64,000 bases of DNA. It comes from an uncultured Gammaproteobacteria bacterium. GTDB lineage: Bacteria > Patescibacteriota > Microgenomatia > UBA10105 > UBA927. Position numbers and translations under genes: made by a program. The DNA lies in NCBI GenBank assembly GCA_964449675.1, contig CAYVAR010000001.1, positions 44,877 through 108,876 of the forward strand, read 5' to 3'. Shown in pieces: positions 8,924 to 63,637 of this stretch; the stretch's first letter is position 1, and the number at the start of each line of letters is the position of its first letter. The notes beneath the pieces are model-generated. The model ran no database searches. It was not told the DNA's origin and was given only the letters and a program-made list of their open reading frames with translations.

Positions 8924-9032
8924 TACCTATTTAATAGTTATATACGAGCAAAATATTATAGGTCTTGAAAAATATAAACAAAAATGGTATATTATAATTG
9001 TTTAATAAATAGTTAAAAGACAACAACGCCTT

Positions 9033-9092
9033 GATCTTTCTTTAGAAGAAAGATAATTACAACCGGCCAGTCAAAAGGGGCCGGTTTTTTGA
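9033..9092 (+). terminator. Tandem hairpins ending in a T-run; an intrinsic terminator after rnj.
   Basis: ATCTTTCTT-tag-AAGAAAGAT is followed by CCGGCC-agtcaaaagg-GGCCGG and then TTTTTT. Confidence 0.55.
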
Positions 9093-9351
9093 TGCATAAA
9101 AAACCGGCACAAACAGAGCTGGTTTTGTTGACAACAGTAGCAAAGCCGGATGCACGCCAAGCTCCAGAAGCACTGAGAAGCCTGCGCGCATCCGGGCAAA
9201 GGTGCTTTGCTACAGTGCAGCATGTGTGCCCGCGCCCGGGTGCGGGCACATTAACAATCTGGTGTGAAAACAGGTTTTCCTGTTGCCCTTTCGGGAAAGA
9301 ACTTATTCTTTTTCGAATGGGTAACAGGAGACCTAAACAAGGAGACTATGA

Positions 9352-10066
9352 GATGAGTACCTTACGAATGTTTTGGGAACTTCTAAGGCGGACTGACGAT
9401 CGTATCGCCCGCGTGACCTTGCGGCTGCCCAAAAGGCTGCAAGGACTGGAGCTGCGCGACGACCTGACGCTTGCCGTAGCCATCACGAGAAGGATTTACG
9501 TGTATGGCGTTCTCGCGCTTTCGGCCTTCCTCGTGGTCTACGTGGCCTACTGGTTGCTCTTTAGCGGGCCACGGACGAGGCTCTCAGACCCAGCCCTCCA
9601 AACCGAGATCCCTACGGCCATCGCTTCACCGACGCCGCGGGTGATTATCGATCCCTGGAGCGGACATGAGTGGTTCTCAGCCGACGAGGCGCGAAACCTC
9701 AGGACCCAGGAGAACGTTATCAACCTGGCATATCTTGAGGACGGTAGCGCCAAGTACAGCGCAGGCTTTAGCGTAGTATTCACCGGCGAGACTCCTTGGG
9801 AGAATGCGGGCAAGCCCTTCGGCGTGAGCGAGCTGAGTGTCGAAGTTACCTCGGTTGCGCTCACCGCCCACGGTCAGCAATATACCCTGAACGTGTGGCA
9901 GCCGTTTGTGCTTTCCGAAAATTCTCAGGAGATCTACGTCGTTGATGCGACAGGCCAGTTGTGGCGGGCGCCACTGGCCGATCTGAGCCTCGTTCCTTTG
10001 GATCAGGTTATCGGCGACCTCCCGGCCCCGATTGCGCCCAACCCCAACCTCAGTTTTACCTACTGA
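9352..10066 (+). CDS. Hypothetical single-pass membrane protein encoded in the high-GC island.
   Basis: The ATG carries an AAGGAGA RBS (MSTLRMFWELL...), one transmembrane segment is present, and codon usage is GC-rich unlike its flanks. The upstream part of ORF 9089..10066 is treated as leader. Confidence 0.5.
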
Positions 10067-10080
10067 AAGGAAGGTATGAG

Positions 10081-11877
10081 ATGTTATTCACCTACAGTCT
10101 TGCATTCGCTGCGGGAGCGGCTGCTGCTGCAGGCCTGTTCGAGCTGTTCAACGGCCGCTTTAAACACCCGGTGAGCGCCGGATTCATCACGGGCGTCCTC
10201 ACCTTCATCGTCAACGCGGGGATCGTGTACTTCGGCATGCCGCCCTTCACCCACTGGCTCGCGGCCGGCTACCCGATTCTGTTCTTCGTGGATTTGGCTA
10301 TCGCTGCGGTCATCGTGGTCATTGACTCGGCGGTAACGTATGAAGAGCACCGCGCGGATGGTTCCGGCGGTTACGTAGCCGCAGGCACGTTCGTCGTGTT
10401 TCTGGTTGTTTGGGGTATGGTCGCCGCAGTGACCCCTCCCGGGGCATTCTGCGACAATCCCGGCTACCAGCGGATGGTCGCGCTCATAAACGTTGCTGAT
10501 AGCGACGCGGCGTTCCCGGACACCAACTTGGACAGTCTGGTGCGGGTTGCCCCGGAGACGGCTATGCTCAAGGCTAGCCGCGCAATCGGCGGCGACGCCA
10601 ACATCGGCTCCTACCTTGAAGTAAACAACCCTTACCTGCAAAAGGTCCAGGGGCGTTGGGTCTATGTTGTAGACCTTAAGGTAAAGGACTGGCGGGCCTT
10701 CGAAACTAAGGGTGCGGTCGTGCCCGGATATATCGTAGTTTCAGCAACGGATCCGCAAGCCGAGGCAGAATTTCGCACCGGCTATGCCATCCGCTATGCG
10801 CCAGACGCGCGCTGGGATCAGGACCTCGACCGGCACGCGTATCTAGGCTTCCTGTTGGGTTCTCCCTACCGCGTGATGGACTTGCGCGGTATGGAAGTTG
10901 ACGAGGAGTGGAACCCTCACTACACGGGCACACTCCTTCGTCATGAAGTAGGATTCGAAGGCAAGGTCGTGGTCGGGATGCTTGACGTCAATCCCCAATC
11001 CGGCGAGATGGCCATGTACACAGTCGGCGAGGTCCCCGAGTGGATCGACAGGATCTGGCCGCTCGAGCTTGTCAAAAGCTACGCAGGTTGGTGGGGTAGT
11101 TATATAGACCACCGGGCATGCGAGCTTCAAGGGGCTGCAGGTCAGCGCGCGATCGACAACACCAACGACGTCGTTACGAGCGCCGGACTCGAGTTTCAAG
11201 TCACGATGACGTCCGTCGGAACCGACCAGTCCCTAACGGAGATTCTCTACGTCGAGCCTCGGACGGGAATCGCCACTCGCTACAAGCTGACCGGCGCCAC
11301 AATCCAGGCTATCGACAACCTCGTTGATGAAGCCAGCCGGGAGATCACCGCCGAAGGTTACGAGCCAGTTGAATGCGAACTCCAGGTGCTTCTGGGCCGC
11401 CAGGTCTGGTACTGCGTCCTGACGGGCCGGGGCGGGGGCGAGGATCTCTCGAGCGGCTCCTACGCGGGGGTGGCCTTTGTCCAAGTGAAGTTTACCTCGG
11501 ATAACACCAAGGTAATCATCGCCGAAACGCTTGAAGAAGCCTACGCCCAGCTCCAGCGACAGATCGCCACGGAAAGTTCCGACGACCCGACCTTGCGCGA
11601 GGCTCAAGAAAAGATCCAAGTGGAAGGCGTGATCGAGCGCAAAGCCAGCATAGGCCAGGACGGTTTCGACACCACTGGTGGAGGTGCTTTCCTGTTCCTA
11701 ATTAAGGCTGACGACGGCAAGACCTACTACTGCCTGGCGCCGACCGCTAGCTGGAATGCGGCGCTCGCACGAGAAGGAGACCGGGTCACAATCACGGCCT
11801 TTCAGGAGCTTGACAAAAGCTACCTGACGGTGATTGATATCGCCATAGTCGGCGCGCCCGACTTCGATCCCAACTAA
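10081..11877 (+). CDS. Hypothetical polytopic membrane protein (about 4 N-terminal transmembrane segments plus a ~450-aa soluble domain) in the high-GC island.
   Basis: The start MLFTYSLAFAAGAAAAAGLF follows a GAAAGGAAGG RBS. GC-rich codons (GCC, CTG, CGC) run throughout. I recognise no domain. Confidence 0.55.
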   Translation: MLFTYSLAFAAGAAAAAGLFELFNGRFKHPVSAGFITGVLTFIVNAGIVYFGMPPFTHWLAAGYPILFFVDLAIAAVIVVIDSAVTYEEHRADGSGGYVAAGTFVVFLVVWGMVAAVTPPGAFCDNPGYQRMVALINVADSDAAFPDTNLDSLVRVAPETAMLKASRAIGGDANIGSYLEVNNPYLQKVQGRWVYVVDLKVKDWRAFETKGAVVPGYIVVSATDPQAEAEFRTGYAIRYAPDARWDQDLDRHAYLGFLLGSPYRVMDLRGMEVDEEWNPHYTGTLLRHEVGFEGKVVVGMLDVNPQSGEMAMYTVGEVPEWIDRIWPLELVKSYAGWWGSYIDHRACELQGAAGQRAIDNTNDVVTSAGLEFQVTMTSVGTDQSLTEILYVEPRTGIATRYKLTGATIQAIDNLVDEASREITAEGYEPVECELQVLLGRQVWYCVLTGRGGGEDLSSGSYAGVAFVQVKFTSDNTKVIIAETLEEAYAQLQRQIATESSDDPTLREAQEKIQVEGVIERKASIGQDGFDTTGGGAFLFLIKADDGKTYYCLAPTASWNAALAREGDRVTITAFQELDKSYLTVIDIAIVGAPDFDPN

Positions 11878-12240
11878 CGTATTCTCCTGTTACCCGAGGG
11901 TTGACTCTCGGTAGAACTATCACACCAGAGTGGAGGACGGACGATGATCCGATTGTCTGCGCGAATTTTGCGCATACGATTTGATCCATTTTCCGTTCCT
12001 CCATAGCCCTCTTCCGATGATTATCGGGACTGATGAGTCGGTCTTTCTACTATATAGGACTACGACGAAAGAGCTATTTTAAATAATGATTACCATAGAT
12101 TAAAGATATAAATAACGTCGACGACGTATATATTTGTCCGGGACTTGGCTAAACGTCATTTTCATACAATCCACCATTTTTCAGTTTAAACGGTTGAACC
12201 AACCTCCAAATCCCTCTATACTAACTGGTACACCATCTTT

Positions 12241-14394
12241 ATGTTTGGAAGAAAGAAAAAGCGCGCGTATAGGAAGCGCAAATCATTTGGCATCAAGCTT
12301 AAAAAGCAGACTGTCTATACGGTCGGGGCTATATGGTTATGGCTTTTTGCGGGAGCTATAACCCTCGCGTTTTTTGGAGAAGGATCAGTGTTATCTACTC
12401 TTCGCGAAGGACTCTTGCAGCACGTCGGTTGGGTCATGTATGGGCTACCGCCGTTTCTCGTCACCTTAAGTTTTCTCTTTTTTAACGTGAAATCAGATAT
12501 AGGGAAACCAAATGTCCCCTTGGGCTTAGGCGTTCTTCTTCTTTCTCTTATAGGCGTCACGCAAGCGGGAACGTTTGGTGAATTTTTGTGGAATATTGTT
12601 TCAAATAACTCCGCAGCTGAGGTAACAATTTTGGTCTATATCGGTCTTTTTATGGTTGGCTTGATCGTCCTTTTCAACACTTCTCTTGACCGATTTATGA
12701 ATATTATCCTTTCTGCGTTTCAAAAAATGGGTGAGTTGCTTGCAGTAGCCGTAGAAAATATTTTTTCTAAAAAGGAAATCCCGCTTTTTGCAAAAGACAA
12801 ACAACTTAAAATAAAAGGTACAGATGATGAAAAGCTATTAGGAAAGGCACCTATGCCGCTTCCTCCGATACTAGGAAAGTCACAAGCGATGGCTGGTGTG
12901 ACATCGACCAAGTCTGATCTTTCGATACACGCACCGCTTGCAAGTTCAAACGACGCGATATGGGAGTATCCACCGTTGACGCTTCTCTCTGATGGTCCTG
13001 GTCAAAAAGCAGATCGCGGTGACATGAGAAAGAATGCATCCATCATAGAAAAAACCCTTGAAGGATTTGGGATAACGGCAAAAGTAACTGAAGTAAATAC
13101 CGGTCCGGCGGTCACGCAGTACGCACTTGAGATAGCATTAGGTACAAAAGTGTCAAAGATTACATCACTTTCAAGTGACCTTGCGCTTGCTCTTGCTGCT
13201 CCCACCGGTCAAGTGCGCATAGAAGCGCCGATACCCGGACGAAGCTTGGTGGGAATTGAAATTCCAAATAGGGGGCTTGAGTTTGTTACCCTTAAACGGA
13301 TGCTTACTTCCGACGTACTTCGTAAGTCAAAAAGTAAACTCGCTGTCGCATTGGGACTTGATGTGTCTGGGAGTCCACTCATCGCAGATATAGGAAAAAT
13401 GCCTCACGTATTGGTAGCCGGAACTACCGGTAGCGGCAAGTCGGTGCTTGTTAATTCGTGGATTTGTTCGCTACTGTTTCGTACTACACCATCGGAAGTA
13501 CGACTTATCTTGGTTGATCCAAAACGAGTGGAACTCACTGGATACAACGGTATACCGCATCTTTTAACTCCGGTCATCGTTGAACCGGATAAAATTCTTT
13601 CCGCCCTTCGCTGGGCGATGACAGAGATGGAAAATCGCTATAAGCAGTTTGCTGAGGTGGGAGTCCGGAATATCGACGGATTCAATGAACTATCCGGATT
13701 TCAAGCGATGCCCTACATTGTGATCCTTATTGATGAACTCGCTGATCTTATGGCGTATGCGCCAGTTGAAGTAGAAGATGCTATTTGTCGCATAGCGCAA
13801 ATGGCTCGAGCAACGGGGATTCATCTCGTATTGGCAACGCAGCGGCCGTCAGTTGACGTTATCACAGGACTTATTAAAGCCAACGTACCTTCTCGTATAG
13901 CCTTTAATGTATCTTCCATGATTGATTCTCGCGTTATTATCGATATGCCGGGAGCTGAAAAACTCCTCGGTCGCGGAGATATGCTGTATGTCCCGCCAGA
14001 CCAGTCAAAACCAAGTAGAATTCAGGGAACGTTTGTTTCAGAGCAGGAAGTTAATAAAGTCGTAGATTTCCTTAAAGTAAAAAATGTGCCTGTGCAGTAT
14101 ACCGAGGAAGTAACAAAGCAACCGCTTACTGGGTGGAAAAGAGGGCTTGCGGTAAACGCTGGAACTGATGGGAAGGATCCGCTTTTTGAAGACGCACTTC
14201 GGCTTATATGCCAGCATGACAAAGCATCAGCGTCACTTCTTCAACGACGTCTTTCTGTTGGGTATGCGCGTGCTGCACGAATTTTGGATCAGTTGGAAGG
14301 TGCCGGTATTATTGGTCCGGGAGAAGGCAGTAAGCCTCGAGATGTCCTCGTAAAAAACGCGGATGATTATCTTGCCCTACAAGCACAACAGTAG
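12241..14394 (+). CDS. ftsK: DNA translocase FtsK/SpoIIIE.
   Basis: N-terminal transmembrane segments, Walker A VAGTTGSGKSV, LILVDPKRVEL and IDELADLM motifs, and a C-terminal gamma domain (LLQRRLSVGYARAARILDQLE) are all present. Confidence 0.9.
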   Translation: MFGRKKKRAYRKRKSFGIKLKKQTVYTVGAIWLWLFAGAITLAFFGEGSVLSTLREGLLQHVGWVMYGLPPFLVTLSFLFFNVKSDIGKPNVPLGLGVLLLSLIGVTQAGTFGEFLWNIVSNNSAAEVTILVYIGLFMVGLIVLFNTSLDRFMNIILSAFQKMGELLAVAVENIFSKKEIPLFAKDKQLKIKGTDDEKLLGKAPMPLPPILGKSQAMAGVTSTKSDLSIHAPLASSNDAIWEYPPLTLLSDGPGQKADRGDMRKNASIIEKTLEGFGITAKVTEVNTGPAVTQYALEIALGTKVSKITSLSSDLALALAAPTGQVRIEAPIPGRSLVGIEIPNRGLEFVTLKRMLTSDVLRKSKSKLAVALGLDVSGSPLIADIGKMPHVLVAGTTGSGKSVLVNSWICSLLFRTTPSEVRLILVDPKRVELTGYNGIPHLLTPVIVEPDKILSALRWAMTEMENRYKQFAEVGVRNIDGFNELSGFQAMPYIVILIDELADLMAYAPVEVEDAICRIAQMARATGIHLVLATQRPSVDVITGLIKANVPSRIAFNVSSMIDSRVIIDMPGAEKLLGRGDMLYVPPDQSKPSRIQGTFVSEQEVNKVVDFLKVKNVPVQYTEEVTKQPLTGWKRGLAVNAGTDGKDPLFEDALRLICQHDKASASLLQRRLSVGYARAARILDQLEGAGIIGPGEGSKPRDVLVKNADDYLALQAQQ

Positions 14395-14496
14395 CTAAAT
14401 AGCAAGGCCAGTTACTCCGTTACTTAGAAAGAGCAAATTCTTTTTTTATTTTTTTCCTAATAACTAAGTAACAAAGTAACCAAGTAACCTTTTTTC

Positions 14497-15129
14497 ATGA
14501 AAACAGTAGGATCTATACTCAAGGAAGCTCGAATTGGGAAAGAAATAACACTTGAACAAGTAGAAAAAGCGACGAAAATTCGTGAGAAATTTTTGCATGC
14601 CATAGAAGCAGATGATTATACAACGCTTCCATCTCCTTCCTATGCGAAAGGATTTGTAAAAAACTATAGTGCTTTTTTAGGACTTGATATTGAATGGGTA
14701 CTCGCGTTTTTCCGCCGACAAACCAGAGAGCCACCTCGGTCTACGCTTTTACCCAAACAACAGGACGAGTTGGAAAAACCGTTCTTCCGCCTTACACCGA
14801 ATCGATTCCTCTTGCTATTTGTGGCGAGTTTGGTACTTATTTTTTTGTCGTATCTAGGACTCCAATATCGTAAATTAACATCACCTCCGTTCCTTTCTAT
14901 CGAATCTCCAAAAGAACAAATCGTAAAAGATAAACGTGTAGATATTCTTGGAAAAACAGATACAGATGCAACAGTGACTATAAATGATGTTTCAGTATTC
15001 GTACGAAGTGATGGACGATTTTTCGATCAAAGAATTCTTAACGAAGGAATAAATAAAATTGTTATTACTTCGACGAGTCGGTACGGAAAAACAACGACAG
15101 CAACTCGAGAGGTAACGTACAAACCTTAG
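14497..15129 (+). CDS. rodZ: RodZ-like cytoskeletal protein with an XRE-type HTH and one transmembrane segment.
   Basis: The N-terminus GSILKEARIGKEITLEQVEKATKIREKFLHAIEADDYTTLPSPSYAKGFVKNYSAFLGLD follows the RodZ HTH pattern, and a single transmembrane segment follows it. Confidence 0.6.
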   Translation: MKTVGSILKEARIGKEITLEQVEKATKIREKFLHAIEADDYTTLPSPSYAKGFVKNYSAFLGLDIEWVLAFFRRQTREPPRSTLLPKQQDELEKPFFRLTPNRFLLLFVASLVLIFLSYLGLQYRKLTSPPFLSIESPKEQIVKDKRVDILGKTDTDATVTINDVSVFVRSDGRFFDQRILNEGINKIVITSTSRYGKTTTATREVTYKP

Positions 15130-15309
15130 TCATTGACAGATATCTGGTTTTTGGAGATACTAGTGAAGTAAATTCTAAGCACTAAATACTAAATCTGAAA
15201 CAAATTTAAAATAAAAATATTCAATTTTTAAACTTTTTCTATTAGTATTTTGAATCTATAATTTATTTAGAAACTAGATATTAGTGTTTAGAATTTTATA
15301 ATCTGCCTC

Positions 15310-15570
15310 ATGGAACCTATACAGCTAACTATTATTGTAATAAGCATTATCCTCACAACTCTATTTGTTTTCCTCGGCATTCAAGTGTGGCATATCCTCA
15401 AAGAAATGAAATTATCTCTTGAGAAAGTCAACAAGATGCTTGATGATGCTGGAAAAGTCACAGGAACGGTGAGTACGGGAGTAAGCGGTATGGCGGGACT
15501 TGTGGAAGGACTTAAAACTGGACTATCAGTGTTTAGTGCATTTCGAAAAAAGCACGAAGACTATGAATGA
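15310..15570 (+). CDS. Small membrane protein of 86 aa, hypothetical.
   Basis: Listed ORF with an N-terminal transmembrane helix and no known motif. Confidence 0.35.
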   Translation: MEPIQLTIIVISIILTTLFVFLGIQVWHILKEMKLSLEKVNKMLDDAGKVTGTVSTGVSGMAGLVEGLKTGLSVFSAFRKKHEDYE

Positions 15571-15955
15571 TGATCATCAGGGGCGAGACTTCAAATTCTG
15601 GGTAGGTTTTTTTGTCGGGGGTCTGCTTGGGGCGATCGTTTTATTTTTTCTGGGAACAAAGGAAGGAAAAAAAACGGGAAGATTTTTGGAGGATAAAGGA
15701 AAAGATCTAATCGATGAACTTCAGGATCGTTTGGGTGAGCTTGAGAAGAAAGGCAAAGAACTTGCCAAGCAAGGAGAAGAGATCAAAGAGGAAGTTTTAG
15801 AAACGCTTGATGATAAAAAGGAACACCTAACAGAAAAAGCGACGGAAAAATTAGATGAAGCGCTTGAGCATATAGAAAAGCTGCAAGAACACGGCCGCCA
15901 GACGACGATAGCCATAAGAAAACGCCTCTTCAAAAACCTTCCAAAGAGACCATAA
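15563..15955 (+). CDS. Hypothetical membrane-anchored coiled-coil protein.
   Basis: The in-frame ATG (MNDDHQG...) is followed by a transmembrane segment (FWVGFFVGGLLGAIVLFFLG) and then a charged coiled-coil region. Confidence 0.4.
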   Translation: MNDDHQGRDFKFWVGFFVGGLLGAIVLFFLGTKEGKKTGRFLEDKGKDLIDELQDRLGELEKKGKELAKQGEEIKEEVLETLDDKKEHLTEKATEKLDEALEHIEKLQEHGRQTTIAIRKRLFKNLPKRP

Positions 15956-15963
15956 AAAATAAT

Positions 15964-17628
15964 CTATTGAGATTTATATTGCAATGTACCAGACTCAAGT
16001 GCATTAAGAAACTGGGAGGCTTGAGTAAATGATGGATCTATAGAAAGGGCTTTTTCGAATGCTTCTTTAGCATTTTCTTTATCATCTAGTGCAACGAAAA
16101 TAACGCCGAGATTAGTGTAAAGAGCGGCATTGTTTGAATCAATGGTCAAACCTACTTTGATATGTTTCAATGCTTCAGTTAGATCCTTTCTTTCATAGAG
16201 AAGCGCTGCGATATTTTGATGCGATTGCCAAAGCGTCGGATTATAATCCAAAGCTTTTTGATATTGGCTGATGGCTTCGTCGTTTTTCCCAAGACTTCGA
16301 TAGGCATTGCCGAGATTGTGATAGGCGTCAGCGTAGTTTGGTTTGAGGGCAATTGCTTCTTGAAATTCTTGTGCAGCTCGCGTGTGATCGCCGCGACGCC
16401 CATAGACATCACCGAGGTTGTTATGCGTATTGGGACTACTTGGCGAGGTTTTACCGGTCGCTATCCAGAGCGTATCTTCATTTTTCCAGTCGTTATTTCG
16501 GACAACAGTTCGAATGCTTAAAGCAATAATTATGAGAATCCAAAGTATTATAAAGATTTGTCTCATATGATGTTTTCGAAATCCATAATCAGCACAAAGA
16601 GCAGTAAGTACACATAGTCCTGCAACGCTTAGATACGCATATCGTTCGGCTACGACCCACGTGAGCGGTAATGGGATGAGTGTCGGTATAAGCGGGATGA
16701 TAAAGAATCCAAACCAGAAAGAAATTTTTCTATTGATCTTAAAGAAAACTATCGCACACAAAAAGTAACCGAGTACCAAAAGTGCGCGAAGAATGAAAAT
16801 AAATTTCGTAAAAGACAATTCTGACTGATAGATAGTTAATTTGTTCGGCCATGCAAAAAGCAAGAGGTAGGAGGAAAGCGCTATAGGGATACGGATCAGT
16901 GGATTATCTATGGTGATTTGCGTTTGCGTTTCTTGGGTAAGATACGAAAGCCTGTTAGATAAGCGACCAGAGTAAAACCAGCCGAACATATACAAAAGAC
17001 TTAAAACAAAAAATATTGTTACAATGCGCCAGTTTTTTTTTACATTACCAGAGCAAATTTCATAGAGAGGGAAAACGAGAAAGAGTATGCTTGCTTTTTC
17101 TGAAGAAAGAAGCGATAGAAGAAACGATACAATTGACAGAACCAGAATTATTTTTTTTGTTTTTGCGACCAGATAAAGATAGAAAGACAGTAAGAAAAAA
17201 AAGCTATATTGTGCATAGACGCCACCAGAAATCCAGGTGATTGTTTCCACCAAAAGCGGGTGGACGGCAAAAAGCGTTCCAGAGAGAATGCCGATACGCT
17301 TCGAAAATATTTTTTGTGCAATTCCATAAACGAGAATGGTGTTTCCTATGTGGAAGGCGATGTTGCCAAGTCTATAAAAGATTGGTTGGAACCCAAAGAA
17401 TTTATAAGTAATAAGGTAAACCAAGAGACGAAAGGACGTAAGAAATTTACTAAATACAAATGCAAGGTTCCATGATGGTGCATTGATGAGAATACCTCTA
17501 TCGTCAGATACAAACCCATTGAATAAACTATTACTATAGGCGATGCTAATAAGAGTGATGATCGATAAAATATATAGCAAGTTTTTTTTTAACAATTGAG
17601 AATTCAAAAACGAGAGAAGTTTACCCAT
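15964..17628 (-). CDS. Polytopic membrane protein with a C-terminal TPR-repeat domain, resembling a glycosyltransferase family 39/83.
   Basis: About 10 transmembrane helices are followed by several TPR repeats (AYHNLGNAYRSLGKNDEAISQYQKALDYNP and others). Confidence 0.55.
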   Translation of the reverse strand: MGKLLSFLNSQLLKKNLLYILSIITLISIAYSNSLFNGFVSDDRGILINAPSWNLAFVFSKFLTSFRLLVYLITYKFFGFQPIFYRLGNIAFHIGNTILVYGIAQKIFSKRIGILSGTLFAVHPLLVETITWISGGVYAQYSFFFLLSFYLYLVAKTKKIILVLSIVSFLLSLLSSEKASILFLVFPLYEICSGNVKKNWRIVTIFFVLSLLYMFGWFYSGRLSNRLSYLTQETQTQITIDNPLIRIPIALSSYLLLFAWPNKLTIYQSELSFTKFIFILRALLVLGYFLCAIVFFKINRKISFWFGFFIIPLIPTLIPLPLTWVVAERYAYLSVAGLCVLTALCADYGFRKHHMRQIFIILWILIIIALSIRTVVRNNDWKNEDTLWIATGKTSPSSPNTHNNLGDVYGRRGDHTRAAQEFQEAIALKPNYADAYHNLGNAYRSLGKNDEAISQYQKALDYNPTLWQSHQNIAALLYERKDLTEALKHIKVGLTIDSNNAALYTNLGVIFVALDDKENAKEAFEKALSIDPSFTQASQFLNALESGTLQYKSQ

Positions 17629-17993: not shown

Positions 17994-18521
17994 TTACTTT
18001 GAAATAAATTTCATGTATTCCTTATCGGTGATAATATCTCTATTATTTTTGATGCGATCAAGGAAAACGATGCCATCAAGATAATCGATTTCATGTTGAA
18101 TGATGCGTGCGATGAAATTAGAAAATTTTTTCCGATGTTTCTCACCTTTTCTATCTATATATTCTATAGTAATCGTTTCAAAACGAGGGATGAGGCCGCG
18201 GATCCCCGTAATACTCAAACACCCTTCCCAATCTTTCTTTTTTACTTTTGAGTGAGAAAGAATTTTTGGGTTAATCATCGACGTAGACTTCATTTCTGGT
18301 GCGTTGGGGTAACGGGGATTTGGATGCGATGCGACGATAATTATCCGGAGCGACTCATACACTTGTGGTGCTGCAATGCCCACACCGTTGACGTCCATGA
18401 CTGTTGCAAGGAGATCATCGATCAAAGATTGAATACGCGAGCCTCGTACGTTTTCCACTTCTTTTGCTTTTTGACGAAGGATAGGATGTCCTAATTGTGC
18501 AACTTGAAGAAGTCGTGCCAT
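17994..18521 (-). CDS. def: Peptide deformylase.
   Basis: The three conserved motifs are present: GVGIAAPQV, EGCLSITG and HEIDYLDG. Confidence 0.9.
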   Translation of the reverse strand: MARLLQVAQLGHPILRQKAKEVENVRGSRIQSLIDDLLATVMDVNGVGIAAPQVYESLRIIIVASHPNPRYPNAPEMKSTSMINPKILSHSKVKKKDWEGCLSITGIRGLIPRFETITIEYIDRKGEKHRKKFSNFIARIIQHEIDYLDGIVFLDRIKNNRDIITDKEYMKFISK

Positions 18522-18523
18522 AT

Positions 18524-19432
18524 CTAAACTATGACATTTTGTGGATTACCTTGGATAAATTGTACAATATTTTTTGCGACCATTTGAGAAAGTGCAAATT
18601 CTGCTTCATCGGTGTTGAATCCTATATGTGGTGTAATGATAACGTTTGGGAAACTAAATAATGGACGGGTTATGTCCATAGGTTCATTCGTAAGAACATC
18701 AAGTCCAGCAGCAAATATTTTTCCTGATTTAAGATTATCTACAAGTGCTTCTTCATCGATAACTGCTCCTCTACCGGTATTTACTATGACGACAGCTTTT
18801 TTCATGCATGAGAATTCTTTTTTTCCTATCATACCGCGTGTTTTTTCTGTGAGAGGCGCCGTAATAGCGACAACATCACTTTCTTTAAGTAATCTCTCAA
18901 AATCTTCTCGTTTTGATGATGTATTTATGTAAAAAATGTTCATATCAAATCCTTCTTTCGCAATTTCTGCGACACGTCTACCAATATTACCGGATCCAAT
19001 CACTCCAAGCGTTTTGCCTTTTAATTCTTTGCCTTTATATGTACCTGGATTATATACACCCCTACGAAGTTCCGTGCTTGATTGGCAGATCAATCTACTT
19101 GCTGCAAGCATAAGTCCAATCGTATGCTGCGCAACAGCTTCTGTGGAAAATCCTGGACAGCTACAGACAATAATTCCTCGTTGTCGAGCTTGGCTTATAT
19201 CGATCTTTTCATAGCCCGTTGCGGATACACAAATCATACGTAATTTTTTTGCAGCGATGATAGTGTCTTTTGTCATTTCGAATGCAATGACAATATCTGC
19301 ATCCGTCACGCGGCGACACAACACGTCTCTCGATGGTTGATCAGTGTATAGAAATAATTTCCCATAATGTCGTAATTCTTTTTGGTGCTTAGGGTGGATG
19401 ACAATAAAATTATCAATACTTACAATTTTCAT
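18524..19432 (-). CDS. D-isomer-specific 2-hydroxyacid dehydrogenase (glycerate or phosphoglycerate dehydrogenase-like).
   Basis: Contains the NAD-binding motif GVIGSGNIGRRVA and the catalytic region GRGAVIDEEAL ... TPHIG. Confidence 0.8.
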   Translation of the reverse strand: MKIVSIDNFIVIHPKHQKELRHYGKLFLYTDQPSRDVLCRRVTDADIVIAFEMTKDTIIAAKKLRMICVSATGYEKIDISQARQRGIIVCSCPGFSTEAVAQHTIGLMLAASRLICQSSTELRRGVYNPGTYKGKELKGKTLGVIGSGNIGRRVAEIAKEGFDMNIFYINTSSKREDFERLLKESDVVAITAPLTEKTRGMIGKKEFSCMKKAVVIVNTGRGAVIDEEALVDNLKSGKIFAAGLDVLTNEPMDITRPLFSFPNVIITPHIGFNTDEAEFALSQMVAKNIVQFIQGNPQNVIV

Positions 19433-19965
19433 ACGTTTAACAAGGACAGCAGTTGAGGAATTTGTGTGATACCATCTTTATCAGTAAAGTGGCGGGCACC
19501 CTTAATCAGCATATATTTTCCACCCAATCGTTTACTCATTTCTTGTACTGTAAACGCAGTAACGTAGGGGTCGTTGTCAGATGATATACAATAGATTTCT
19601 TTGACGTTCCTTTTTATTGCAGCGTGATTGATTGGTTTTTCCCAAAATAGTCGATGTTCCTTCGTCAGATCGTTGAAATCCCAACCGGCAACGAGAAAGA
19701 GCTTATCAAAAGAATATTTTTCTGCAAGCCGCATACCGAGAAGACACCCAAGACTATGACCAATGACTATAGTTTGATGGTTAATTGTTAATAGTTGATT
19801 GATAAAGGATAGTTGTTTTGTCATATCCGGAAGATCAGTATGTATCGTGGGAAGGTCGGGGAGTAAAATTGTATATTTTTTCTTTTCTAACTCTTCTTTA
19901 AGCCATGGGTACCAATTGCTCTCCGGTTTTTGATACCAGCCTTGAAGAATAAGCGCCTGTTTCAT
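19429..19965 (-). CDS. Alpha/beta hydrolase of the RBBP9/YdeN family.
   Basis: Contains a GHSLGC nucleophile elbow, is 178 aa long, and shows the YdeN-like order of catalytic residues. Confidence 0.6.
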   Translation of the reverse strand: MKQALILQGWYQKPESNWYPWLKEELEKKKYTILLPDLPTIHTDLPDMTKQLSFINQLLTINHQTIVIGHSLGCLLGMRLAEKYSFDKLFLVAGWDFNDLTKEHRLFWEKPINHAAIKRNVKEIYCISSDNDPYVTAFTVQEMSKRLGGKYMLIKGARHFTDKDGITQIPQLLSLLNV

Positions 19966-20014: not shown

Positions 20015-20044
20015 ATGTTATCATGTTTTAAAACAAGATAACAT
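20015..20044. repeat. Copy 1 of a 30-bp AT-rich palindrome, ATGTTATCATGTTTTAAAACAAGATAACAT.
   Basis: Identical to the copy at 59837-59866 and near-identical to the one at 21704-21733. It lies about 20 bp downstream of the cutA stop on the minus strand. Confidence 0.5.
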
Positions 20045-20066: not shown

Positions 20067-20393
20067 TTAACGAAGTTCTTGTAGAAGCCAGTCGTGATAC
20101 TTCTTAGAGACGTGGGAGATGGGGATCTCATAGAGGGCTGGATTGGAGTAGGAGTGAATCGTCATGATCTCTTTTTCAATAGCCTTATACTTTGATGCTA
20201 ATGCATGGCAAAGAAGGATCGTTTCGGAGGCTTTTTCAATGCGATTCTTCCCTGGTGGCCAGAAGTACATCGAGTGGACGCCATCAATAATATTGATACA
20301 CCCAACGAGGCGTTTTTTGAGGAGATGGCGTCCGATATCCTCAGCTTGTTCGCGAGACTGACAGGTGATGTAGGTGAGAATGAGTTGTTTCAT
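20067..20393 (-). CDS. cutA: Divalent-cation tolerance protein CutA.
   Basis: The 108-aa sequence aligns end to end with CutA1, e.g. LVGCINIIDGVHSMYFWPPG ... ILLCHA. Confidence 0.8.
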   Translation of the reverse strand: MKQLILTYITCQSREQAEDIGRHLLKKRLVGCINIIDGVHSMYFWPPGKNRIEKASETILLCHALASKYKAIEKEIMTIHSYSNPALYEIPISHVSKKYHDWLLQELR

Positions 20394-21340
20394 TATGCTA
20401 GCCCTCTCTTGGCTTTTTCTAGCCAGTTAATAGTTAGTTTTGATGTATCTCGAAGCTTAGTAACGTAATAATTAGTTCGGAGATATATTATCGCATATTG
20501 GGCATGGATTAAGGGAACAAGTGCATCGCGTTCATATGATACAAGCGGCAGCGTCAGTTGGTAATGATTGACAACCAGATCTATGCGCCGTTGTTTTTCT
20601 CCATGAGGAATGTCGAGCGTGTAGTTAGCAAGAAACGTCGCGACGTCGTATATCGCGGCGTTATAGTCCATACATCCCAAATCAAGAAGACAGAGATTAT
20701 CGTCGCGCTTGAGTATGTTTTCTGACTCTAATGTGCCATGGATAATACACCGCCGGAATCGATTATGCGGTAAAGATTGGTATTCTCTAACGACTTGTGA
20801 GACGCGCTGCTCATGAGAATCAGTAAGATAACGATGAAACTTCTTAAACTGTGAGAGAAGGTTAGCAATTCCCATCGTGTCGTAATAGCGCCCGATGCGA
20901 TGGGTATTTTTGTGAATGGTCGCCATGTAATCCGTAAGGCGCAGGAGGTCATCGTCTGTCGCTTTTTGGGGTCGGAGGTACTGACCATCAAAGTATTCCA
21001 TGACGCACAGATAGGATGTTTTTTTCTTGCCTGGTATAGAGAAAGCATATTCGTTACGATCTGTTTTCCGTAGCACAGGAAACGGAACTCCTTGCTTGCG
21101 AAACGAGAGATAGCCCCAGATGTTATCCTGAATCCTTTTTAGTGACTTTTCTTTTGAAAAAATTTTTATAACAAAGTCTCCCTGTGTTGTGGTAGTTTTT
21201 ATATTTAACTCTTGGTAACCATCCGACAAAAATTCGTAGGAACGCAGTGATCCGATGTTGCAAGCACGGCAAGCCTGGTTGAGAAGTTCATCCAGAGAGC
21301 AAGCGATATCGACGCGTTTCAATAGTGACGAATTATCCAT
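20393..21340 (-). CDS. Phosphotransferase-family protein (APH / choline-kinase / CotS-like fold), possibly catalytically altered.
   Basis: The Brenner-like region reads HGTLESENIL, with Thr where the catalytic Asp of the HGD motif normally sits, and is followed by a DLG motif. Confidence 0.5.
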   Translation of the reverse strand: MDNSSLLKRVDIACSLDELLNQACRACNIGSLRSYEFLSDGYQELNIKTTTTQGDFVIKIFSKEKSLKRIQDNIWGYLSFRKQGVPFPVLRKTDRNEYAFSIPGKKKTSYLCVMEYFDGQYLRPQKATDDDLLRLTDYMATIHKNTHRIGRYYDTMGIANLLSQFKKFHRYLTDSHEQRVSQVVREYQSLPHNRFRRCIIHGTLESENILKRDDNLCLLDLGCMDYNAAIYDVATFLANYTLDIPHGEKQRRIDLVVNHYQLTLPLVSYERDALVPLIHAQYAIIYLRTNYYVTKLRDTSKLTINWLEKAKRGLA

Positions 21341-21701
21341 ATGTTATGACGTGTTGCTTCGGATCAAATTTGGGCGTGGTGACCGTGAAGATCGTCACGT
21401 TGCCTTGCCATGCAAACTGTTCTCCTTTATCCAAAAATAGTAAGTCACCAACTTCGAGAGCGTGTTTGGATTTTGTGGTAATAACATATCCACTTCCGGA
21501 GATGACAAAAGCAAGTTCCTTTGAAACCTCATTGACTGCAAATCCGTATTCGGGATAGCGGCCGTTGACTTCTATAGCTGCACCGCTTAAGGACGGTTCA
21601 TCAATAGAATATTCGTGGATCGTCGTTCCAGCAGAGGGAATAATCTTATTTGTTTCTGATTTTTTGACGATCCGCATACCTAAAAAAAATAATTTCGGCA
21701 A
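21333..21701 (-). CDS. Cupin-domain protein.
   Basis: The length (~115 aa) and beta-rich pattern are cupin-like. The start is probably the internal MRIVKK (21677). Confidence 0.55.
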   Translation of the reverse strand: MPKLFFLGMRIVKKSETNKIIPSAGTTIHEYSIDEPSLSGAAIEVNGRYPEYGFAVNEVSKELAFVISGSGYVITTKSKHALEVGDLLFLDKGEQFAWQGNVTIFTVTTPKFDPKQHVITYG

Positions 21702-21703
21702 TC

Positions 21704-21733
21704 ATGTTACTATGTTTTAAAACATGATAACAT
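21704..21733. repeat. Copy 2 of the 30-bp palindrome, ATGTTACTATGTTTTAAAACATGATAACAT.
   Basis: It lies about 10 bp downstream of the stop of the 21746..22060 gene on the minus strand, directly abutting the cupin gene start. Confidence 0.5.
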
Positions 21734-59826: not shown

Positions 59827-59836
59827 TTTTCTTATC

Positions 59837-59866
59837 ATGTTATCATGTTTTAAAACAAGATAACAT
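59837..59866. repeat. Copy 3 of the 30-bp palindrome ATGTTATCATGTTTTAAAACAAGATAACAT.
   Basis: It lies 11 bp after the stop of the CvpA-CAP gene and 17 bp before the MGMT gene start, and is identical to copy 1. Confidence 0.5.
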
Positions 59867-59882
59867 GAAATGATTAGGAACT

Positions 59883-60182
59883 ATGATGGTTGCAGAACGA
59901 GTGCACACAATCATTAAGAAAATTCCTAAGGGAAAGGTTGCGACCTACAAACAAATAGCAAGCCTTGCTGGAAATATTCATCCGCGATACATTGGTTATC
60001 TCCTTCATCATAACCCAGATCCAAAGACGATCCCATGTCATCGGGTAGTAAATGCTCAGGGAAAGCTTGCGAAGCAATATGCGTTTAGTGGAATTGAAGG
60101 ACAAAAAATGAAACTTGAACAAGAAGGGATCACAGTGAAAGAGGATGAGGTAGATCTTGATCGATATTTATGGAAACAATAA
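59883..60182 (+). CDS. MGMT-family (O6-alkylguanine-DNA alkyltransferase DNA-binding domain) protein, 99 aa.
   Basis: Contains the PCHRVV active-site motif with its Cys, within a winged-helix domain, and lacks the N-terminal domain. Confidence 0.75.
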   Translation: MMVAERVHTIIKKIPKGKVATYKQIASLAGNIHPRYIGYLLHHNPDPKTIPCHRVVNAQGKLAKQYAFSGIEGQKMKLEQEGITVKEDEVDLDRYLWKQ

Positions 60183-62989: not shown

Positions 62990-63637
62990 ATGTATGAAGA
63001 GATGACATCGGTAGGCATATCGGCTTTTTTTTCAAAGTTTCCAAAGCTTGTTGTAAAAACAAAAACAACTATCCTGCGTGGAGATCAACAACCGAAGGCC
63101 CTCTTTTTTCTCGAGTCGGGATACGTAAAACAGTATAGCGTTTCGCCAGCAGGCGAGATGCTCATGATGACTATATATAAGCCTGGTTCATGTTTTCCTC
63201 TGATGTGGGCGCTAGAGGACATCCCCAACACGACATTTCTCGAAACCGTTTCCCCAGTGGTGATGCGAAAAGTTCCCAAAGAGCGATTTTTGGAACTGCT
63301 GCATACGCATCCGGATATTTTGTTTGCCTACGCAAAACGAATCGTTAAAGGACTCAATGGACTCATGAAACGCATGGAGCTTCTCGTATTTGACCGCGCA
63401 AATATGCGCGTTGCTCTGATTCTTTCGTATTTTGCCCGTTCATTTGGCGAGAAAGCTCATGGGTCCATCACCCTGCCGATTCTTCTGCCACACAAAGAGC
63501 TTGCAGCTTGGTGTGGGTTGACGAGGGAAACAACAAGCGTCGAAATGGCTCGCCTCGTAAAGGGCGGAGTCATTTCCTATAATCACCGCTTCATCGTGAT
63601 TCAAAATCTCCCAAAACTCGAGCATGCATCTATTTAA
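62990..63637 (+). CDS. Crp/Fnr-family transcriptional regulator.
   Basis: An N-terminal cNMP-binding-like beta-roll is followed by the C-terminal HTH RETTSVEMARLVKGGVI. Confidence 0.75.
   Translation: MYEEMTSVGISAFFSKFPKLVVKTKTTILRGDQQPKALFFLESGYVKQYSVSPAGEMLMMTIYKPGSCFPLMWALEDIPNTTFLETVSPVVMRKVPKERFLELLHTHPDILFAYAKRIVKGLNGLMKRMELLVFDRANMRVALILSYFARSFGEKAHGSITLPILLPHKELAAWCGLTRETTSVEMARLVKGGVISYNHRFIVIQNLPKLEHASI

Follow-up and report, generated by a model that had tools for sequence, protein, structure and literature searches.

Three copies of a 30-bp palindrome lie in the 64,000-nt stretch of DNA analysed here (the window). The sequence ATGTTATCATGTTTTAAAACAAGATAACAT occurs in identical form at 20015-20044 (site 1) and 59837-59866 (site 3), and a variant, ATGTTACTATGTTTTAAAACATGATAACAT, at 21704-21733 (site 2). 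The first-pass annotation had reported the three copies at these coordinates, and sequence matching recovered them there. The sites and the genes that adjoin them are:

17994 to 19965, minus strand: putative target operon 1, with Ser_hydrolase (19429-19965), 2-hydroxyacid dehydrogenase (18524-19432) and peptide deformylase (17994-18521)
20015 to 20044: site 1, between the stop codon of cutA (20067) and the start of the Ser_hydrolase operon (19965)
20067 to 21677, minus strand: putative target operon 2, with cupin (21333-21677), an APH-like kinase (20393-21340) and CutA (20067-20393)
21704 to 21733: site 2, the variant palindrome, between the stop codon of a 104-aa gene (21746) and the start of the cupin operon
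59832 to 59839, plus strand: an extra 8-bp unit, TTATCATG
59837 to 59866: site 3, identical to site 1, between the stop codon of the CvpA-CAP gene (59826) and the start of the MGMT-family gene (59883)
59883 to 60182, plus strand: putative target 3, a 99-aa MGMT-family protein (PF01035, PCHR motif)

The gene identities proposed earlier agree with Pfam, which returned CutA1, Ser_hydrolase, cupin (a weak match), Colicin_V plus CAP, and DNA_binding_1/MGMT. The genes of operon 1 overlap by 4 nt or are spaced by 2 nt, the reading frames of operon 2 overlap, and sites 2 and 1 head these two consecutive minus-strand operons, the cupin operon and then the Ser_hydrolase operon. Site 1 lies 49 nt from the hydrolase start, site 2 lies 26 nt from the cupin ATG (21677) or 2 nt from an alternative TTG (21701), and site 3 lies 16 nt from the MGMT-family start, with an AGGA Shine-Dalgarno sequence before the ATG. 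The description of the copies as lying just upstream of the hydrolase, cupin and MGMT genes is thus correct. Each copy had also been said to begin 8-20 bp after a stop codon; the position is real, but the gaps measure 22, 12 and 10 nt for sites 1, 2 and 3, respectively. The sites fall just past stop codons because consecutive operons are packed head to tail with very short spacers.

No match to the palindrome was obtained in 100 dinucleotide-preserving shuffles of the window, so the earlier view that its recurrence exceeds chance holds. Scanning with the family consensus revealed exactly three sites at 0-1 mismatches and no weaker copies in the window at 2-7 mismatches, also when the central 4 bases were left free. 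The count is likewise three, all single, over the 83 kb formed by the window and 10 kb on either side. Symmetry is broken at one position pair in sites 1 and 3 and at two pairs in site 2. The 30-mer is composed of four TGTT/AACA units with an 8-bp period, two direct and two inverted. At site 3 the extra unit forms an in-phase direct repeat with the left arm (TTATCATG twice in succession, 59832-59847), with a shifted consensus match at 59830, and resembles a further half-site, in step with the 8-bp sub-repeats.

The distribution of the motif was investigated with the pattern TGTTANNNTGTTTTAAAACANNNTAACA, scanned against one genome per species. This revealed 65 motif loci, nearly all in Patescibacteria (Gottesman-, Shapiro- and Woesebacteria, and the "Patescibacteria group"); the motif ATGTTAYYATGTTTTAAAACATRRTAACAT is common to many Patescibacteria MAGs, a single one of which has 5-11 strict copies. 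At the six positions that the pattern left open the loci show only YYA/TRR, and the consensus is a perfect palindrome, nTGTTAYYATGTTTTAAAACATRRTAACAn. Matches in L005/L035 (Spirochaetia), L014 and L033 (Clostridium) were set aside as unrelated look-alikes in which the free positions differ. Nearly the same 30-mer recurs in different candidate families whose genome G+C contents range over 39-51%, and conservation of the primary sequence over this range points to recognition by a conserved protein and speaks against both a repeat peculiar to one species and a simple hairpin. Over 28-30 bp the sites hardly vary, which is far more information than such a regulon needs and also resembles copied repeats.

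Several of the genomes with the motif (L004, L007, L008, L034, L040 and others) are binchicken MAGs titled "uncultured Gammaproteobacteria/Pseudomonadales". They carry the TrpR-like gene of Patescibacteria described below together with the palindrome, among typical Patescibacteria neighbours, and their labels are probably wrong. Four independent short-read assemblies (L146-L149; Logan contigs SRR12113420, SRR12113424, SRR12113384 and SRR12113383) end within the palindrome of site 1, and four homologues of the TrpR-like protein (P0045, P0048, P0049 and P0083) stand on contigs of only ~510-560 nt, the spacing of the palindromes that flank their genes. The repeated 30-mer evidently breaks k-mer and short-read assemblies at these places.

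A crude gene map permitted 64 sites to be classified as tandem, convergent or divergent (42/14/8), and several of the 14 convergent spacers were confirmed on inspection. Two of the three window targets, the hydrolase and the cupin, recur beside the motif in other genomes. Seven other loci have a Ser_hydrolase gene (PF06821) behind a homologous site, mostly as the gene after that for the TrpR-like protein, and in L072 the deformylase start lies 29 nt from a homologous site. In a Gottesmanbacteria MAG with ~73% nucleotide identity to the window (L061), the syntenic site is retained upstream of an operon composed of a 224-aa gene and the cupin, though the neighbouring genes differ.

In 9 of the 65 loci a gene whose product begins MTQVS... 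starts 5-20 nt past the motif. Proteins linked to the motif in this way, all encoded in other genomes, match PF01371 (Trp_repressor) at 53.7 and 46.2 bits against a cut-off of 27. The protein consists of 147 aa, with a TrpR/YerC-like helix-turn-helix (HTH) core and a C-terminal helical extension of ~45 residues. Database searching returned 154 homologues, nearly all of 146-150 aa and all from Patescibacteria; PF01371 was present in all 120 that were listed, and their annotations went no further than "Trp family transcriptional regulator" or "YerC". Scores against the equivalog models lie below their cut-offs (TIGR01321, 29 versus 67 bits; TIGR02531, 33 versus 42 bits). An AlphaFold model built on 30 homologues (pLDDT 78 overall, ~90 in the core) is confident for residues 11-103. 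In Foldseek this model matched TrpR and TrpR-like chains with a probability of 1.0 and TM scores of 0.75-0.84 (normalised to the target), and the predicted fold is all-helical and TrpR-like. Two further C-terminal helices are of low confidence in the model and have no structural counterpart. The nearest sequence relatives in the PDB are of the YerC/HisR type (3frw, 3kor, 3g1c), and similarity to the sequence of Escherichia coli TrpR is marginal (E 0.2-0.5). Neither Pfam nor comparison of the model revealed a nuclease, transposase or other catalytic domain in the 147-aa protein, and neither PHROG nor PADLOC showed a link to phages or defence.

The gene for this protein was not found by tblastn in the window or in the 10 kb past either end, so that a candidate repressor acting on the three sites would be encoded elsewhere in the genome. 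The FtsK/RodZ-like/YtxH-like gene order of the window (12241-17628) is common to L060, L050, L053, L027 and L066, where it is followed by a unit consisting of site, regulator and site. The window is without the unit there and has instead a convergent 554-aa TPR membrane gene, which starts 8 nt past the YtxH-like gene; a move, a loss or a gain of the unit would explain the difference. Between RNase J and FtsK lies a G+C-rich island (9000-11900; 58.6% versus ~43%) that looks like foreign DNA and holds two overlapping ORFs annotated without function, 9089-10066 and 9961-11877, the latter with several hydrophobic stretches. Upstream of the window (L152, contig 17.5-27 kb) is the order hrcA-grpE-dnaK-(23S rRNA IVP protein)-dnaJ.

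The association of protein and palindrome was studied in 80 metagenomic loci selected by the protein alone and spanning 94-37% identity. In 78 of them the palindrome, or a co-evolved variant of it, ends 0-35 nt before the start codon of the regulator. Of 66 non-redundant loci, 61 have a second palindrome within 130 nt past the stop codon (median 8 nt), against 0 of 66 for a control stretch taken from within the regulator gene. The post-stop copy adjoins a convergent gene in about a quarter of the regulator loci (~10/38), which suggests that this copy is part of the regulator unit, where it could serve for looping or as a roadblock, and not of the gene beyond. Which gene comes after the regulator depends on the lineage, yet a site always precedes it: a Fic-family protein whose C-terminus carries a DeoR-like HTH in one distant group (L100-L102, L107, L110), and Ser_hydrolase, an FeS_assembly_P protein or AlaRS in other groups.

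The centre of the palindrome changes with the protein through the series TTTTAAAA, TTTCGAAA, TTCTAGAA, ATTCGAAT, ATTTAAAT and ATAYRTAT, and the arms vary too. Operator and protein covary with a Spearman coefficient of 0.47 overall. The TTCTAGAA centre is accompanied by the HTH sequence VGLETV in 7 of 7 loci, other loci having VSLGTV or VSLTTV, and ATAYRTAT centres pair with the HTH "RVTPxTI". Such covariation of HTH and palindrome is the signature of direct, co-evolving protein-DNA recognition. Comparison of the two copies that flank one gene showed 58 one-arm differences versus 8 compensatory ones that keep the palindromy; the constraint thus appears to be on sequence and not on pairing, which fits recognition by a protein. 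Selection for a hairpin was considered for the symmetric variants (TTTCGAAA, TGCTA..TAGCA) and rejected, these being lineage-specific operator types that track changes in the HTH. The copies flanking one regulator can differ in their centres, each being symmetric (TTTCGAAA versus TTTTAAAA and TTTTAAAA versus TATCGATA; L068, L072, L095). One lineage (L125, L127, L132) has a consistently asymmetric operator, TGTTATCATGATTT joined to AAATCATTAGAACA, the two copies being alike in sequence and pointing the same way relative to the gene.

In the distant variants the palindrome overlaps a predicted promoter. TTGACA is found 22-23 nt left of the palindrome centre in ~20 loci, TATCAT follows at +1..+6 after a spacer of 17-18 nt, and the start codon lies at +13..+22. 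The palindrome would here span the spacer and the -10 element as well as the point at which a leaderless or nearly leaderless mRNA begins. A palindromic candidate operator lying over the regulator's own predicted promoter was found (78/80 loci; TTGACA-17/18-TATCAT). TTGACA was not seen in the close group, to which the window belongs. In 10 loci of this group the regulator ATG is at +21, the 7th nt after the TAACAT that ends the palindrome; in sigma-70 promoters 7 nt is the canonical distance from the -10 hexamer to the start. Longer gaps between palindrome and ATG are filled by a GGAGG Shine-Dalgarno sequence. About nine credible targets other than the regulator start about 3-8 nt past the motif, among them RdgB, DNA ligase, an HhH-GPD glycosylase, DUF3850 and RecF. 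This geometry suggests that the palindrome overlaps or contains a promoter in which TAACAT would be the -10 element and ATGTTA/TTGTTA of the other arm a weak -35 element at 18-nt spacing, and a module of such symmetry could fire both ways. In the window the terminal TAACAT lies at 59861-59866 in site 3 and, read on the minus strand, from 20020 to 20015 in site 1. Between the latter and the ATG there is a perfect TATAAT (minus strand, 19988 to 19983), so that at site 1 the palindrome may lie a little ahead of a different promoter and act on it from there without overlapping it.

In the close group ~44 downstream genes are credible targets, 14 of which specify functions in DNA repair or nucleotide care: ATP-dependent DNA ligase (two), RdgB/Ham1 (three), RecF, RecG, thymidine kinase (Tdk; two), thymidylate kinase (Tmk), Nudix, HhH-GPD, DNA_alkylation repair and MGMT. 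By rough estimate, made without a computed background, this share is far above that in a genome of ~1000 genes. Other candidates include TGT (two), Sua5-TsaE, AlaRS, CysRS, a RibD_C/DHFR-like protein, an AAA_33 kinase, Fic and FeS_assembly_P. The targets that recur across genomes are Ser_hydrolase (eight, including window site 1), RdgB and AlaRS (three each), and DNA ligase, Tdk and TGT (two each). No his genes were among the ~44, and trp-related targets were likewise absent. With DNA repair, the sanitation and salvage of nucleotides, and tRNA modification among its functions, this candidate regulon suggests, speculatively, a nucleotide- or DNA-damage-related cue as the sensed signal.

Since the palindrome is linked to the TrpR-like gene in all but two of the 80 loci and covaries with its HTH, the window sites are best read as operators of a TrpR-like repressor. 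We give a probability of about 0.75 to the reading that each palindrome is the operator of a Patescibacteria-specific protein of the Trp-repressor family. The candidate gene, which lies outside the window, is elsewhere bracketed by two palindromes, one at its promoter and start codon and the other just past its stop codon. The 30-mer would probably bind two dimers, and the outward-facing TAACAT of each arm would probably be a -10 element. From the geometry, transcription would start ~7 nt past the palindrome and the bound repressor would occlude the promoter. Three units in the window would be placed under this regulator: the hydrolase/dehydrogenase/deformylase operon, the cupin/kinase/CutA operon and the MGMT-family gene. 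One of the two possibilities raised in the first-pass annotation, that the copies are shared operators for a dimeric regulator, is therefore strongly supported by conservation across Patescibacteria, by the linkage to the TrpR-like gene and by the covariation of the HTH.

A more elaborate form of the operator reading is offered tentatively and is appreciably less probable than not. The palindrome would be a self-contained, symmetric promoter-operator with outward TAACAT elements, giving rise to leaderless or short-leader mRNAs; a TrpR-like repressor would use it to govern a LexA-independent regulon of repair and nucleotide sanitation, and the two bracketing operators would serve looping or a roadblock through the new C-terminal domain. 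The module would have spread by copying, as a mobile regulated promoter, and because of such copying the near-invariance of the sites and their presence in convergent spacers would be expected.

The main rival, though an unlikely one, is a selfish dispersed repeat of the REP/RAYT kind, in which the TrpR-like gene would be the element's own DNA-binding protein, the solo copies would be scattered, and effects on neighbours would be secondary. Bracketing of the gene by two copies in 61 of 66 loci and the joint evolution of repeat and protein suit this explanation, as do the near identity of the copies with no weak ones among them and the absence of the site-regulator-site unit from the window where the syntenic loci L060, L050, L053 and L027 have it. 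The copies are, moreover, essentially always intergenic with an orientation split close to random placement in spacers, and the 14 of 64 between convergent genes, where a pure promoter-operator should rarely occur, count against the operator reading. A selfish repeat fits poorly, on the other hand, with an all-helical TrpR fold of 147 aa that has no nuclease or transposase domain and no PHROG or PADLOC link, and with only ~5-11 strict copies per MAG. Persistence of nearly the same 30-mer across candidate families of 39-51% G+C is equally hard to reconcile with it. Sites are also kept at orthologous or equivalent places (the cupin operon, Ser_hydrolase eight times, RdgB three times), start codons lie at a fixed distance, and the upstream copy is within a predicted sigma-70-type promoter. 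Still less probable are architectural sites, distant palindromes being bridged through the C-terminal helices of the protein so as to organise the chromosome in the manner of MatP/matS or ParB/parS. The small protein with its extra C-terminal helical region, the ~5-11 or more near-invariant sites per genome, the pairing of sites ~500 bp apart around the regulator gene and the occurrence of some sites away from any promoter would agree with such a role, which we consider improbable given that sites are strictly intergenic, are integrated with start codons and predicted promoters, and have neighbouring gene families that recur.

The distance from the preceding stop codon is 0-22 nt for each window site and for many others, the post-stop copy of the regulator is kept even where the next gene is convergent, and some solo sites stand between convergent genes. 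These positions would accord with transcription stops at gene 3' ends, either AT-rich intrinsic hairpins or roadblocks by the bound TrpR-like protein, the latter being compatible with the operator reading; as a whole the explanation is rated unlikely, only slightly behind the REP/RAYT-like one. Its RNA hairpins do beat those of shuffled sequences (-10 to -16 kcal/mol, z -2.9 to -5). The terminator scan, however, was negative at 3/3 palindromes, which have neither a G+C-rich stem nor a T tract: A+U predominates in the stems, which are followed by the tails GAUUUAUG, GGAUACGA and GAAAUGAU. Rfam 15 gave no match at the gathering score in the whole window, nor was a tRNA found there. What is conserved is sequence rather than pairing, copies are found in divergent spacers and, in many cases, 3-9 nt before start codons, and the upstream copy overlaps the predicted -10 region and transcription start of the regulator. 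The AT-rich terminators proposed in the first-pass annotation are thus rejected, the intrinsic form being very unlikely, while a roadblock role for the post-stop copy is still conceivable. The local Crp/Fnr-family protein (62990-63637) had been named as a candidate regulator, being the sole transcription factor with a cNMP domain in the window. Crp/Fnr operators are 22 bp long, with half-sites TGTGA-N6-TCACA or TTGAT-N4-ATCAA. The 30-bp motif has no resemblance to these half-sites and neither the 5-N6-5 nor the 5-N4-5 layout, the gene has no site near it (the nearest is 3.1 kb away), and the protein that is tied to the motif and covaries with it is always TrpR-like; we attach almost no weight to this candidate. 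Downstream of the window (L150) a copper/thiol-redox cluster (CsoR-like repressor, P-type ATPase, cupredoxins, DsbD, VKOR, DsbA) adjoins the Crp/Fnr gene, which suggests that the Crp/Fnr protein belongs to that cluster. A LexA box was also considered for the palindrome and rejected, the linked protein being TrpR-like and not LexA.

The Patescibacteria, or candidate phyla radiation, are uncultured and abundant; their genomes measure ~1 Mb and encode very few transcription factors. To our knowledge almost nothing is known of gene regulation in them, and we know of no experimental promoter data. The operators put forward here would provide a first view of a regulon rich in genes for DNA repair and nucleotide care in bacteria with tiny genomes, and a pointer to what Patescibacteria regulate: DNA repair, care and salvage of the nucleotide pool, tRNA modification and a conserved serine hydrolase. 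They also supply candidate promoters and leaderless transcription starts for the group. The regulon can be charted in any MAG through a pattern search (for example, with TGTTAYYATGTTNNNNAACATRRTAACA). The proposed pair of transcription factor and operator persists over protein identities of 94% to 37%, helix and DNA visibly co-evolving, and offers a compact test case for the evolution of specificity in the TrpR family.

No description of the regulator, the motif or the regulon was found in the searchable literature, whose coverage excludes the Patescibacteria SOS/LexA study (Sanchez-Osuna et al. 2017). Among the systems available for comparison, CIRCE/HrcA has a long (27-30 bp), near-invariant inverted-repeat operator that is likewise maintained over large phylogenetic distances; the 9-bp spacer of CIRCE is non-conserved, whereas the palindromic centre is conserved here, and the regulator family and regulon differ. 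The LexA/SOS system resembles the one proposed here in having an autoregulated repressor with a palindromic box before repair genes (ligase, RecF, RecG, glycosylases, alkylation repair). The TrpR-like protein, however, lacks both the fold of LexA and its S24 peptidase domain, and its box is unrelated to known LexA boxes. With REP/RAYT elements it shares palindromic repeats dispersed in intergenic spacers, a gene flanked by two copies, and the co-evolution of repeat and protein. It differs from them in having no Y1 (HUH) transposase domain and no REPIN doublets, in numbering tens of copies at most versus hundreds, and in being conserved across the families of a phylum and, by prediction, built into promoters.

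In outline the proposed system resembles TrpR and HisR/YerC, in which a small dimeric HTH repressor acts at a palindrome over the promoter and controls its own gene (PMC9413887). Escherichia coli TrpR belongs to the same Pfam family (PF01371) and has the same fold. Its trp, aroH and trpR operators are palindromes over promoters, and it is autoregulated, both of which are predicted here. The short operator units with their 8-bp period recall the tandem binding of TrpR dimers (1TRR), for which an 8-bp spacing was reportedly described by Lawson and Carey in 1993. The TrpR operator is, in contrast, 18-20 bp rather than 30 bp long and of a different sequence, its motif being TGTACTnGTnnACnAGTACA (PMC9413887). 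TrpR has ~108 aa, compared with 147 aa including the C-terminal extension; the present system further differs in its second operator past the stop codon and in targets that are not tryptophan genes.

HisR/YerC is the TrpR-family histidine repressor of Firmicutes, a protein of <100 aa that controls genes of his biosynthesis and transport through a 20-bp operator, cacTTTAnnnnnnTAAAgtg (PMC9413887). It is the closest known relative by sequence and structure (3frw, 3kor, 3g1c), with a weak match to TIGR02531. Its palindromic, lineage-specific operator consensus also drifts with the protein, and its regulon was likewise derived from comparative genomics (PMC9413887). The Patescibacteria protein differs in its 147 aa, its 30-bp operator and the lack of a his target among ~44. 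The features that define the TrpR and HisR equivalogs (a 20-bp consensus operator, a length of <~110 aa and a trp/aro or his regulon) are not those of the system described here, and on its sequence the protein is a member of the Trp-repressor Pfam family that stands outside both the TrpR and the HisR equivalog groups.
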